A stretch of DNA of 64,000 nucleotides, taken from contig DATNMU010000216.1 of NCBI GenBank assembly GCA_035602195.1, forward strand, positions 4,853 through 68,852, in the 5' to 3' direction. Each line of letters begins with the position of its first letter. The first letter of the stretch is position 1. Of the stretch, positions 3,967 to 56,778 are shown piece after piece. A model generated the notes under the pieces. The model was not told the origin of the DNA and made no database searches. It saw only the letters and a list, made by a program, of their open reading frames with translations. This stretch comes from Candidatus Acidiferrum sp. (GTDB lineage Bacteria > Acidobacteriota > Terriglobia > Terriglobales > Acidobacteriaceae). A program made the translations under genes and the position numbers.

Positions 3967-5478
3967 TCAACTCCCCGCCCCAACCGCCTCCCCCTCAAAC
4001 CCCGCCCCTCGTAGAGCCTCCCGCGCCACTTCCAGATCATCAAACGGAACCGATCCCTCCCGCGTCGCTTGCACCTTCTCGTGCCCTTTGCCCGCAAGCA
4101 GCACAATATCTCCCGGTCGCGCTTCAGCAATTGCCAAGGCAATCGCCTTCCGACGATCCGCTTCCACGCTGTACCTCACTCCAGTTTTCTGCAAACCCAC
4201 CAGCGCATCATTAATAATCTTCAGCGGATCTTCGGTGCGCGGATTGTCCGACGTCAGCACCACAAAATCGCTGCCCCGCCCCGCCGCCTCGCCCATCAAA
4301 GGACGCTTGGCACGATCGCGATCTCCGCCGCAGCCGAAGACCGTTAAAACACGCCCCTTAGTCCCCACGCTCGAAACCAATTCCCGTGCCAATGCTGTCA
4401 GATTTCGCAACGCATCATCGGTATGCGCATAATCCACCACCACCGTAAATGGCTGACCGCAATCGACCCGCTCAAACCTTCCCGGAACGCACGCCAGCTT
4501 GTCGATTCCCGCCGCAATCGCCTCCGCCGAACACCCTCGGGCAAAGCCCACCCCCGCCGCCGCCAGAATGTTGTACACATTCACCCGTCCAATCAGCGAC
4601 GAGAACACTGCAATCTTTCCCGTGGGCGCAACCAAATCAAACCGCGTTCCGCGCGTCGTTATCTCCACTTTCTCCGCGCGCAAATCGCCGCACTTCCATC
4701 CATACTTCAGCACTACGGAACTTCGCTTCCGGCTGAACTCCGCCAGCTTCGCTCCAGCCTCGTCGTCCACATTGGTCACCACTGCGCGCGGCGCATCGGT
4801 TCCGCACCCTTCAAACAGAACCTTCTTCGCCGCGAAATATTCTTCCATGCTCTTGTGATAATCGAGATGATCGCGGGTCAAATTGGTAAACACAGCCACA
4901 TCAAACGGCACCCCGTAAACGCGCTCCTGCGCCAGAGCATGCGAGGAGACCTCCATTACCGCCTCGGTCGCTCCGTTTCCCAGCGCTTCATTCAGAATGC
5001 GATTCAGATCGAGCGCCTCTGGCGTGGTGTGCGGCGCCGGTAAAACTTTTCCCGCCACGTGATATTCAATCGTCCCAATCACCGCGCTCTTTCGCCCCGC
5101 CGCCGTTAGAATCGCTTCCACTAGAAACGCCGTGGTGCTCTTCCCATTCGTGCCGGTAATCCCCGTAATTGCAATCCGCTCAGCCGGCTTCTTATAAAAA
5201 TTCGCGCTCACTCGCGCCAGCGCCCGCCGTCCATGCGAAACCGCGGCCCACGCCACGCCCTCGCGCGGCTTCTCCGCCGCCGAATCCGTGACTATCGCCA
5301 CCGCTCCCGCCTGAATTGCCTGATCGATAAATCGTTTGCCGTCGCTCGATTCCCCGCGCATGGCCACAAACACGCAACCCGGCTTCACCCGTCGCGAGTC
5401 GTATTCCACACCACTTACGATCGGATCCCCGCTCTGCGCGAGAACTTCCGCCCCATCCAGCACCTGTTGGAAGGTCAT
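3967..5478 (-). CDS. murE: UDP-N-acetylmuramoyl-L-alanyl-D-glutamate--2,6-diaminopimelate ligase MurE
   Basis: 503 aa with P-loop GITGTNGKSTT and a DNPR motif (LTSDNPRTEDP), which is typical of meso-DAP-adding MurE. Confidence 0.93.
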   Translation of the reverse strand: MTFQQVLDGAEVLAQSGDPIVSGVEYDSRRVKPGCVFVAMRGESSDGKRFIDQAIQAGAVAIVTDSAAEKPREGVAWAAVSHGRRALARVSANFYKKPAERIAITGITGTNGKSTTAFLVEAILTAAGRKSAVIGTIEYHVAGKVLPAPHTTPEALDLNRILNEALGNGATEAVMEVSSHALAQERVYGVPFDVAVFTNLTRDHLDYHKSMEEYFAAKKVLFEGCGTDAPRAVVTNVDDEAGAKLAEFSRKRSSVVLKYGWKCGDLRAEKVEITTRGTRFDLVAPTGKIAVFSSLIGRVNVYNILAAAGVGFARGCSAEAIAAGIDKLACVPGRFERVDCGQPFTVVVDYAHTDDALRNLTALARELVSSVGTKGRVLTVFGCGGDRDRAKRPLMGEAAGRGSDFVVLTSDNPRTEDPLKIINDALVGLQKTGVRYSVEADRRKAIALAIAEARPGDIVLLAGKGHEKVQATREGSVPFDDLEVAREALRGAGFEGEAVGAGS

Positions 5479-8359: not shown

Positions 8360-8648
8360 CTTCCAGAAACCCTCGACAAATTATGTGGCGACAGCCGCCC
8401 TCGGCTGTCCCGGCTTGGGCGAAGCCCAGCCGGCGCCTGCCACAAGCCCCGACTTGGTTCCCATCCGCGAAAAGCGCAAGACGAAGTGCGTTTCGCCGAT
8501 GTTTCAGTGGGCCCGATCCGTCAATTAAGAGTTAGCCCTCCTTCCGTTCCATACCGTACCCGGCAACATTCCGTCCTGTGCTACCATCTACTGTTTTCCG
8601 GCGAGGCCGTTTCCGCGACGCACCTCCGCCGGGGTCAGAGCCAGTCCG

Positions 8649-48152: not shown

Positions 48153-48171
48153 ATTCCTCGCTACGCTCGGA

Positions 48172-48192
48172 GGACAGCCGGGGCGGCTGTCC
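48172..48192. terminator. GC-rich hairpin (family B core GGACAGCCG-GGG-CGGCTGTCC) between convergent genes; possible bidirectional terminator
   Basis: 9-bp perfect stem with a 3-nt loop, between the aminotransferase stop (48152) and the sodC stop (48217). There is no clear U-tract, so function is inferred from position only. Confidence 0.35.
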
Positions 48193-48216
48193 CCACATGA
48201 TTTGTGCCGGTAGAAA

Positions 48217-53648: not shown

Positions 53649-53690
53649 TCAAAATCAAAATCAAAATCAAAGTCAAAGGCAACGGCAACG
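53649..53690. repeat. Hexanucleotide microsatellite (tcaaaa x3, tcaaag x2, gcaacg x2)
   Basis: tcaaaatcaaaatcaaaatcaaagtcaaaggcaacggcaacg. It is followed by family B hairpins (53719-53840). Confidence 0.9.
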
Positions 53691-53874
53691 GACAGGAGTG
53701 TCCGTTCCACACGAGCGGGGCGTCGCTGCGCGACGCGGACAGCCGGGGGCGGCTGTCCCCACACTTGCCGTGCCGAGGGCGGCTGTCCCTACATGTGCTG
53801 TGGTGAGGGATGCACGGGCGGGTCGCCCGTGCCCACACGGTTTGCGGCGCTAGCTAGGCGATCAGTTAGCGGTG

Positions 53875-55824: not shown

Positions 55825-56778
55825 CTAGATCGCGCTACACAAGCTTTCGTTCACGTTGAGAAAGCGCATTTCGGGAGCGGGGGGCAAGGCTCCGATCTCG
55901 GCGGCGTAGCGATAGAAGAGTTGGAGACCTTCGAGGCAAGCGGGATCGAGGTGGTAGTAGATGTTTTCGGTGAGGTAAGAACGGACGTTCGCTTCGGTGA
56001 GGGCCAGGCGTGGGGCCCATTCGCGGCAGATTTGGTCGAGGCTTGCGGGTTCGAGGCCGTGGTCGCGGGATTGCTGGAAGATTGCGGCCAGGTCTTGGGC
56101 GGGGAGAACAGCGTCGCTGCGCGACGCGGACAGCCGGGGGCGGCTGTCCCCACATGAGGCCTCCTCACATCGGGCCTGCTCATATACGTCATCTCCACGC
56201 AAGGCATCTTCCTGCAGGGCTTGACGGCGGACCGCCCAGAAGGCGAAGACGAAGGGCTTGCCGGTGTGGCGAATCCACTCTTCGGCGAGATCGAGGGTGA
56301 AGTAACGCGAGCGGTCGATCTGCAGGGCGGGATCGCCGATGAGCAATCCGGCATCGTGAGAGGCGAGCATTTTGTCGATGTCGGGGGGCAAAGAAGTGAA
56401 GGTTCGGCCGCCGCCGAGCCATTTTTCGAACAATATTTTCGTCAGAGCGACCGAGGTCATGGAAGAAGTGTCCAGGGCGATGGTGCGAATTTTTTCGAGC
56501 GGTTGATTGCTGACCAGCAAGATGGAGCGAACCGGACGGCGGGAGGCGATGGCTACGCCGGGCAGCACTGAGAGGCCGGGGACTTGAGCGTAAGCGGCGG
56601 CGGGGATGATGCCGATGTCGGCGGTTCCGGCCGCGAGTTCGCGGGCGCAGGATGAGGGCAGAGTGTAGGAAATGTCGAAGTCGCGGGCCAGGTCGTGTTC
56701 GGGGTTGCGGTGTTCGAAATCCCACATCAGGGGAGCGGTGTTGAGGTAGGAGATCGCAGAGATGCGTAGACGTCTCAT
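55825..56778 (-). CDS. mqnA: Chorismate dehydratase MqnA (futalosine pathway) with an in-frame family B repeat insertion
   Basis: MRRLRISAISYLNTAPLMWDFEH..., GTADIGIIPAAAY, LLIGDPAL, KPFVFAFWAVR. The central CGDSRPRLSASRSDA is encoded by the repeat element. Confidence 0.82.
   Translation of the reverse strand: MRRLRISAISYLNTAPLMWDFEHRNPEHDLARDFDISYTLPSSCARELAAGTADIGIIPAAAYAQVPGLSVLPGVAIASRRPVRSILLVSNQPLEKIRTIALDTSSMTSVALTKILFEKWLGGGRTFTSLPPDIDKMLASHDAGLLIGDPALQIDRSRYFTLDLAEEWIRHTGKPFVFAFWAVRRQALQEDALRGDDVYEQARCEEASCGDSRPRLSASRSDAVLPAQDLAAIFQQSRDHGLEPASLDQICREWAPRLALTEANVRSYLTENIYYHLDPACLEGLQLFYRYAAEIGALPPAPEMRFLNVNESLCSAI

Follow-up and report, generated by a model that had tools for sequence, protein, structure and literature searches.

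In the REPtron and REPIN-RAYT systems (Nunvar 2010, PMC2817692; Bertels and Rainey 2011, PMC3116915; TnpA-REP of E. coli), copies of a repetitive extragenic palindromic (REP) element flank the gene of a Y1/HUH enzyme, the REP-associated tyrosine transposase (RAYT), and the REP population is restricted to a lineage, in which it is mostly inherited vertically. According to parts of the survey by Di Nocera, De Gregorio and Rocco (2013, BMC Genomics 14:522, PMC3733652), a GTAG tag defines one REP superfamily, GTAG and CGTC REPs are found wholly within open reading frames (ORFs) in several species, many of the intragenic copies lie in DNA repair/replication genes, such as UvrD, or in tRNA synthetases, and some Rickettsia palindromic elements (RPEs) are equated with REPs. 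RPEs themselves (Ogata et al. 2000, as given in PMC3733652 and PMC10969869) are selfish palindromes inserted in frame in many protein genes, where they are tolerated in loops of proteins that stay functional, and they are conserved between species. The present work concerns a 45-nt palindromic repeat found inside mqnA, the predicted gene of chorismate dehydratase (futalosine pathway), on a 64,000-nt stretch of DNA, in the following the window, which spans positions 4,853 to 68,852 of contig DATNMU010000216.1 (assembly GCA_035602195.1). The source is a metagenome-assembled genome (MAG; labelled G000) of 4.8 Mb in 397 contigs, with 56% GC and 91% completeness.

The minus-strand mqnA ORF reads through the element as ...EEASCGDSRPRLSASRSDAVLP... 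without a stop codon. It matches Pfam PF02621 with E 4e-53, in two stretches with the insert between them, and MqnA proteins of known structure (PDB 7AN9/7AHR) match its residues 3-199 with E 2e-24; none of the NCBIfam models matches the G000 protein. When 20 mqnA genes of the same genus are aligned at the DNA level, 18 run from ...GCG CTG CGN straight to GAA GCC ... GAC CTG (...ALR to EAAPSQDL), and only G000 and one relative, G003, carry extra DNA at this point. The straight passage in 18 of 20 orthologues leads to the conclusion that the extra residues are, judging from the alignment, an in-frame insertion of the repeat. Most of the 18 insert-free genes come from genomes that hold the repeat family, and the insert-free proteins of the genus (...ALREAAPSQDL...) have 277-278 aa. 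Thus, the claims of an earlier note on this DNA that a hairpin element lies within the minus-strand mqnA ORF without breaking its frame, and that the 317-aa product is longer than usual for MqnA, are borne out, as is its reading of the extra residues as an insertion; the link to a RAYT, the tandem-array part of the insert, its age and sharing among species, and the number of further in-frame copies, all described below, go beyond that note.

Orthologues were further surveyed in the 80 species genomes that matched best in the collection (Sulfotelmatobacter MAGs for the most part), of which 17 have an intact insert at the same codon and seven a partial remnant, so that, with G000, 18 intact inserts are at hand. 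Their length varies among carriers. The smallest (L038, L039, L041 and L044) consist of 15 codons, CGDSRPR(L/P)SASRSDA, while the G000 insert is made up of the 45-nt REP and about 54 nt of degenerate 15-nt tandem units, which together add 33 residues. In a 93%-identical, 317-aa protein (P0001) from a separate JGI metagenome contig, the units EDAFS/REALG/EDALC/EKALC are still recognizable, and a fresh duplication is seen in the relative P0004 (QENALCGDG/QENALCGDS). Insert-free genes may also show 5-codon duplications at the same spot (ALREDALREA, ALKEDALQEA; L090, P0106 and P0003), which indicates that the mqnA loop is prone to 15-nt slippage independently of the REP. In another species, the orthologous REP carries a 24-nt insertion (read FGKLRAGS) within its hairpin-2 loop (L045:2020-2169), and the resulting composite equals a long-loop variant that is dispersed in G000 (e.g. 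C231:18854, C350 and C39:12209).

In a MAG as fragmented as this one, a repeat may have been wrongly joined into mqnA during assembly or binning, repeats being frequent sites of assembly breaks and mis-joins. Such an artefact is for all practical purposes ruled out, since about 18 species genomes, each assembled independently, have the insert at this one codon, some of them on contigs of more than 1 Mb, and it recurs in many metagenome proteins, the 93%-identical one of equal length included, with the frame open.

On the plus strand, positions 56110-56156 read AGCGTCGCTGCGCGACGCGGACAGCCGGGGGCGGCTGTCCCCACATG, with AGCGTCGCTGCGCGACGC, GGACAGCCGGGGGCGGCTGTCC and CCACATG as constituent parts (table 1). 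Within three mismatches, the only other match in the window is at 53719-53765, with three differences, all at the ends; 56111-56154 and 53720-53763 are identical across 44 contiguous bases, and the near-identity with an intergenic copy that had been noted earlier is therefore confirmed (shuffled sequences gave no match in the 47-nt copy search). The earlier note had also reported the inner hairpin at 48172-48192, which holds for the stem and not for the loop: the GGACAGCCG-N-CGGCTGTCC hairpin occurs in the window at 48172, 53737 and 56128, but has the 4-nt loop of GGACAGCCG-GGGG-CGGCTGTCC at 56128 and 53737-53758 and a loop of 3 nt at 48172-48192. For the mqnA copy, the predicted RNA fold has -31.5 kcal/mol (z -3.4) and the predicted DNA fold -20.7 kcal/mol (z -4.2), with a 9-bp stem and a 4-nt loop in the inner hairpin (hairpin 2) and 7 bp in the second one (hairpin 1). 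The stem of hairpin 1, a palindromic pattern counted twice in the exact-site search, has only two exact sites in G000, in mqnA and at 53720; hairpin 2, of what will be called the A type, has 40. An Rfam scan of 47.9-56.9 kb at E values up to 1 returned no family matching the repeat.

Table 1. Position of mqnA, of the parts of its insert and of other copies of the repeat family in the window.
Feature	Position	Strand	Description
mqnA (chorismate dehydratase, futalosine pathway)	55825..56778	-	317 aa, insert-bearing; ORF, Pfam and PDB matches
45-nt REP unit as translated	56110..56154	-	codons C209-A223 (CGDSRPRLSASRSDA); GTGG tag at coding-strand 5' end
Hairpin 1	56111..56127	.	GCGTCGC-TGC-GCGACGC; rare stem variant specific to the mqnA lineage
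Hairpin 2	56128..56149	.	GGACAGCCG-GGGG-CGGCTGTCC, A-type stem; conserved core of the family
Conserved foot CCACATG	56150..56156	+	reverse complement CATGTGG, i.e. the GTGG/GTAG tag
Tandem-unit segment	56155..56214	-	codons Q189-S208 (QEDALRGDDVYEQARCEEAS); about four degenerate 15-nt (5-codon) units
Intergenic REP cluster	53719..53830	+	first unit 44/44 identical to the mqnA copy, rare hairpin 1 included
Family member	48155..48198	+	hairpin 1 CCTCGCTACGCTCGG, hairpin 2 with 3-nt loop, CCACATG foot
Family member	8382..8428	-	C216:13234-13280
Family member, 3-nt loop	36364..36409	-	C216:41216-41261
Family member, 3-nt loop	37426..37471	-	C216:42278-42323

The mqnA copy belongs to a family with 78-85 copies in G000, found by blastn-short and by exact degenerate patterns. 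The unit, of about 48 nt, consists of hairpin 1, with a stem of 6-7 bp and a TTC/TGC loop, whose sequence differs from copy to copy; of the conserved hairpin 2, GGACAGCCG-(A/G)GGG-CGGCTGTCC; and, after hairpin 2 in nearly all copies, of the foot CC(C/T)ACAT. On the other strand the foot reads ATGT(G/A)GG, with GTGG in the mqnA copy and most other G000 copies, and GTAG in a minority of them and in the copies that flank RAYT genes. In an alignment of 55 paralogous copies, pairing extends to 95.3% of the stem cells, and there are changes on both sides in seven pairs (e.g. in one hairpin-1 pair, which 27 copies have as U-A and 18 as C-G), values that none of 500 shuffles reached; for hairpin 2, 97% of cells are paired. 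Of 24 genomes of the same genus, 22 have tens to about 200 occurrences of the motif formed by the foot and the 3' arm, which is essentially absent in 16 genomes of the sister family (reversed-pattern controls gave 0-2), so that the repeat family appears to be restricted to one genus, Candidatus Sulfotelmatobacter.

Two relatives have, on contig 1 of G015 and contig 4 of G012, copies of the family within 20 nt on both sides of a gene for a 160-164-aa Y1/HUH transposase, which passes the Pfam Y1_Tnp model and scores 80.8 bits, at a cut-off of 80, with the NCBIfam equivalog NF047646, 'REP-associated tyrosine transposase'. With a REP-type foot tag and a RAYT flanked by its copies in relatives, the family is therefore, on the evidence of these gene neighbourhoods, best taken as a REP/RAYT system. 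The two genes differ in the arrangement of their flanks: in G015 both flanking units are in direct orientation, and in G012 (L138, G012:C4:24000-25300) the gene ends in ...CAC ATG TAG, the TAG stop being supplied by the GTAG of the downstream inverted REP. A homologue of the REP-flanked transposase is found in nine of 16 genomes of the genus, some of which have several RAYT paralogues (four in G015), and others, G000 included, in which none was detected, still hold REPs. The sole Y1_Tnp gene of G000 (C300) was rejected as the cognate RAYT: its product shares 29% identity with the REP-flanked enzymes, its frame seems to be shifted, and the inverted repeat on its flanks is a different one. It lies at C300:10740-11380, with the apparent frameshift near the 5' end and an inverted repeat of about 32 nt (CCCATTCAAGCCCGGTTTTGGCTTGAGTGGGG and its complement) on its flanks, and from its sequence it would be a second tyrosine-transposase unit, of the terminal-inverted-repeat type and unrelated to the REP family.

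MqnA is not the only protein of G000 in which the repeat is translated. Under a strict definition the copies number 78; at least 14 of these are in frame within long ORFs, with Pfam domains flanking or enclosing the unit, and 64 are outside verified genes. The hosts are the genes for Lhr helicase, ValRS, UvrD, MutS2, PurL (where the unit is inside the AIRS domain), an ABC exporter, a molybdopterin oxidoreductase, a wHTH-TPR regulator, a DUF4015 protein, a PD40 peptidase, DusB, agmatine deiminase, LpxB and MqnA. These intragenic copies are read in both orientations and in several frames, and the encoded peptides are therefore unrelated. In PurL (C75:4761-7130), G000, G006, G011 and G012 have a REP in the AIRS loop after GARPVAVMDSLRFGP, G001 and G010 have remnants there, and G002 and G015 have inserts of other kinds (comparison with L140-L157); the compared stretch ranges from 80 to 106 residues, and hairpin 1 in G011 differs from that in G000 and G006. 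UvrD (C231:17667-20471) has two in-frame inserts, one a standard unit (HVGTAALGRPAGRSPA) and the other, about 270 residues upstream, a long variant, MWGQPPKPALSEVEGAVQ, with an extra hairpin nested in the hairpin-2 loop. At C39:24323-25615, a further REP unit precedes the RuvB_N domain of RuvB by about 55 codons in the open frame; it is probably part of a 5' leader that is not translated, and was left out of the intragenic count.

The orthologous copies in mqnA allow the history of one such insert to be followed through many species. For 16 intact carriers, which were aligned and on which the conservation, pairing and codon-position figures below are based, the copies all have the same hairpin 1 (GCGTCGC...GCGACGC), the same junction and an altered downstream flank, of the RAPEQ type instead of REAAPSQ; among paralogues, unlike among these orthologous copies, hairpin 1 varies widely. 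A rare hairpin 1, junctions and a flank held in common indicate one origin, and the comparison thus argues for a single ancestral insertion in mqnA.

The 45 REP bases are conserved among the carriers to an extent that mqnA itself does not show at silent positions: identity is 0.863 over the unit and 0.81 at its third codon positions, as compared with 0.59 at third positions and 0.52 at fourfold sites of the flanking gene, and the residues just after the REP vary freely. Conservation of pairing is uneven within the unit. In hairpin 2, 97% of cells are paired at the mqnA site, as in the paralogue alignment, with two pairs changed on both sides; hairpin 1 shows unpaired decay only. The hairpin-2 stem is ACAGCC/GGCTGT (A type) in G000 and most carriers, ACGGGC/GCCCGT (B type) in L032, L033, L035 and L036 (the last being G003), and ACGGAC/GTCCGT with a CATT loop (C type) in L043. 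The B and C stems are found outside mqnA too, as dispersed subfamilies: there are 20 exact B-type sites in G003 and none in G000, and the exact 22-mer of L043, CATT loop included, is found at five or more other sites of the L043 genome. B/C types make up 0.11-0.59 of the hairpins in the genomes of the five carriers with a B or C stem in mqnA, as against 0-0.30 in the 11 A carriers (exact Mann-Whitney p = 0.0027, not corrected for phylogeny). REP identity far above that of synonymous sites, together with a stem that follows the subtype of the genome, favours exchange, and suggests that the intragenic copy and the dispersed copies have traded sequence.

We consider a reading in which the inner hairpin of the mqnA copy has been repeatedly overwritten, with its length unchanged, by short-tract gene conversion or RAYT-mediated replacement, so that about 20 nt of an essential gene would co-evolve with dispersed subfamilies, and in which the REP-bearing loop haplotype has been exchanged between species, giving the insert its patchy distribution. 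To this reading as a whole we assign a probability of roughly 0.4. If it applies, the REPs in PurL and in other genes are probably overwritten in place likewise.

A number of observations weigh against the history proposed below, of one old insertion in mqnA followed by homogenization with dispersed copies. In the mqnA tree, for which the insert columns were left out, carriers group with non-carriers as sisters on well-supported branches, which forces at least five changes, and the distribution is also patchy on a tree of the neighbouring DprA and DedA, where well-supported branches force six to eight. The patchiness on both trees implies that a single vertical insertion alone is insufficient and that recombination or trans-species polymorphism must be added. 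The boundaries of the insertion are uncertain by about 6 nt, the closest pair of a carrier and an empty gene (L039 and L049, 92.4% identical in DNA) differing by 39, not 45, nt. The association of stem with genomic subtype carries no phylogenetic correction, and L032, a B-type carrier, has few genomic B copies. The G003 copy, with its B stem, keeps the CCCC loop typical of A copies, which also fits change in situ. Finally, no cognate RAYT was found in the G000 assembly (91% complete, 397 contigs), and present-day mobility there is therefore unproven.

The occurrence of carriers and non-carriers as well-supported sister taxa on two trees could also result from recurrent independent insertion, by RAYT or other activity, at a hotspot in mqnA, with empty sites left behind by seamless IS200/IS605-type ('peel and paste') excision, and such a hotspot would suit both the different stem subtypes at the one mqnA site and the different hairpin 1 of the PurL loop units in different species. 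We regard it as unlikely, because the 16 intact copies share one hairpin-1 stem that is rare (two exact sites in G000), as well as the junction and the altered RAPEQ-type flank, and because removal of the REP from a carrier allele would not restore the sequence of the empty allele. Indeed, in L039 and L049 the adjoining 20 nt or so differ too, which rules out empty alleles as simple excision products of carrier alleles. From these comparisons we infer two loop haplotypes, which would have been exchanged between species by recombination or kept as a trans-species polymorphism.

How far the changes in the stem call for exchange at all is a separate question. Two stem pairs change on both sides (AU to GC in six species, CG to GC or AU in five), one-step intermediates exist in L038, L039 and L042, and these, with the 97% of hairpin-2 cells that stay paired at the orthologous site and the A-type CCCC loop of the G003 copy, might reflect compensatory evolution in situ only, the hairpin being kept either through selection for its DNA or RNA structure or through template switches inside the palindrome, the match to genomic subtypes then being due to shared ancestry. 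This account, though a serious alternative, is the less likely one, in that the same stem variants are dispersed subfamilies whose genome share tracks the mqnA type, the whole 22-mer of L043 matches other copies in its genome up to the loop, and hairpin 1 decays without compensation, which is unexpected under general selection for hairpins or under templated repair.

The protein that carries the insert appears otherwise intact. A first AlphaFold model was discarded, as it was built on close relatives only (at least 73% identity) and reached a predicted local distance difference test (pLDDT) score of 59.5; the model retained, with 87 diverse sequences in the alignment, has a mean pLDDT of 92.4 and a predicted TM (pTM) score of 0.88, and Foldseek aligns it to solved MqnA (7AN7/7AHR) with TM 0.87-0.89, normalized to the target. 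Both sequence and fold (Pfam, PDB and Foldseek) thus place the predicted chorismate dehydratase in the MqnA/PF02621 family. In the model, strand 176-184 (FVFAFWAVR) is followed by a helix (185-208; pLDDT about 75-78), which corresponds to the tandem-unit part, and by a coil (209-229; pLDDT below 50 at 216-224), which corresponds to the REP-coded part, before the native helix begins at residue 230; the remaining MqnA fold has pLDDT 95-99. The REP-coded part is thus modelled as a disordered surface loop. In the 16 carriers, the identity of the flanking mqnA codons is 0.88/0.93/0.59 at positions 1/2/3, which denotes strong purifying selection on MqnA, and the insert-bearing MqnA is predicted to be an active enzyme. 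In all likelihood, then, the insert is a tolerated passenger in a disordered loop of a predicted working enzyme.

Retention of the insert in about 18 species, its conservation above neutral sites and the high stability of the RNA hairpins (-31.5 kcal/mol) might instead be taken as signs of exaptation, the peptide or the mRNA hairpin having gained a function as a regulatory loop, as a translational pause between folding units or in mRNA stabilization. This is very improbable. Conservation extends to third codon positions, and the peptide is therefore not its target; the residues concerned are disordered in the model, and other genes read the same unit in both orientations and several frames as unrelated peptides. 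Moreover, the insert is partly deleted in seven species and wholly missing from close relatives, and G-U and A-C mismatches, compared by eye in the 16 orthologous copies, number three each, so that this strand-bias test gives no signal of mRNA structure.

In the history that we propose, one REP copy would have been inserted once, long ago, in the mqnA codons for the loop between strand FVFAFWAVR and the next helix. It may have survived because the added length was a multiple of three, because the GC-rich unit has no stop codon in the mqnA frame (by eye, five of the six frames of the unit consensus are open), and because it fell in a disordered surface loop of an otherwise intact enzyme. Later slippage at the junction of REP and target would have added the 15-nt tandem units, up to the 33 residues of G000. 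The peptide would be a passenger, and the DNA may still act as a REP, with short-tract gene conversion with dispersed copies as the likeliest cause of homogenization; we infer the mechanisms of both insertion and homogenization from these patterns.

Compared with the systems described at the outset, the family resembles the GTAG REPs of Di Nocera et al. (parts of PMC3733652) in its short GC-rich palindromes, its GTAG-type tag, its tens to hundreds of dispersed copies and the REP-flanked RAYT genes of relatives, and in that a minority of copies lie wholly inside ORFs of known proteins, here UvrD, Lhr, MutS2 and ValRS among others. It differs in its host (Acidobacteriota, Ca. Sulfotelmatobacter), in having two adjacent hairpins, one variable and one conserved, and in its mostly GTGG tag. 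Orthologous persistence in about 18 species, conservation above synonymous sites and stems that follow the REP population of the genome go beyond what those parts of the 2013 survey describe. A Y1/HUH RAYT flanked by REPs, found in relatives, and a lineage-restricted REP population, mostly vertically inherited, are shared with REPtrons and REPIN-RAYT systems (PMC2817692, PMC3116915), but the units are single two-hairpin modules, not the inverted REP doublets of REPINs, and the number of RAYT genes per genome varies from none detected (G000) to several (four in G015).

REPs are imperfect, GC-rich palindromes of 20-40 bp that can fold into a stem-loop. The family has such a stem-loop palindrome, the GTAG-type foot and the dispersed, lineage-restricted copies of REPs, the mqnA copy and at least 13 others departing from an extragenic location; as in RPEs, there is in-frame insertion at loop positions in many genes (14 genes; in MqnA, a low-confidence coil). 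RPE-1 elements measure about 100-150 bp and their host is an obligate intracellular alphaproteobacterium, and we know of no report of a transposase linked to RPEs. With a unit of 45-48 nt, a free-living soil/peat bacterium as host and a cognate RAYT in relatives, the present family is set apart from them, a distinction made without sequence comparison. A miniature inverted-repeat transposable element was also considered and rejected, as there are two separate hairpins and no terminal inverted repeats. Comparison of the filled 53.7-kb site of G000 with the empty site of G003 revealed no target-site duplication.

Selfish DNA inside protein genes has already been described, and the list of host genes looks the same as that of known intragenic REPs; what the present case adds is the host genus, a unit of two hairpins, a link to RAYT genes, a series of orthologous copies in many species, conservation above neutral sites and stem subtypes that follow the REP population of the genome. 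REPs translated within housekeeping genes now extend to free-living soil/peat Acidobacteriota, with at least 14 host genes in one genome and an mqnA copy that has outlasted the separation of many species. With a REP at one and the same codon in species whose dispersed subfamilies differ, mqnA provides a natural data set on the uniformity of REP populations, in which the contrast of 0.86 with 0.52-0.59 identity, combined with stems that follow the subtype, could separate selection on hairpins from copy-to-copy conversion. For annotation, the repeat accounts for loops of variable length in MqnA, PurL and further enzymes of the genus, segments that reflect repeat dynamics and not protein function.

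Besides the mqnA copy, table 1 lists five sites of the family in the window. In the intergenic cluster, the first unit is followed by a half unit and then by a GCACGGGCG...CGCCCGTGC variant, and the syntenic spacer of G003 has none of the 53.7-kb cluster. Since the rare hairpin 1 is common to mqnA and the cluster, and the latter is absent in G003, either the mqnA copy or the 53.7-kb copy would recently have served as template for the other. Directly upstream of the cluster (53650-53700), CAAAAT is repeated three to four times and GGCAAC twice, and a small GGACAGGAGTGTCC hairpin with a CCACACGAGC foot is also found; in G003, the corresponding spot holds another small hairpin, with a CTACACGAGC foot, and lacks the cluster, as would be seen if units were newly added beside an existing REP foot.

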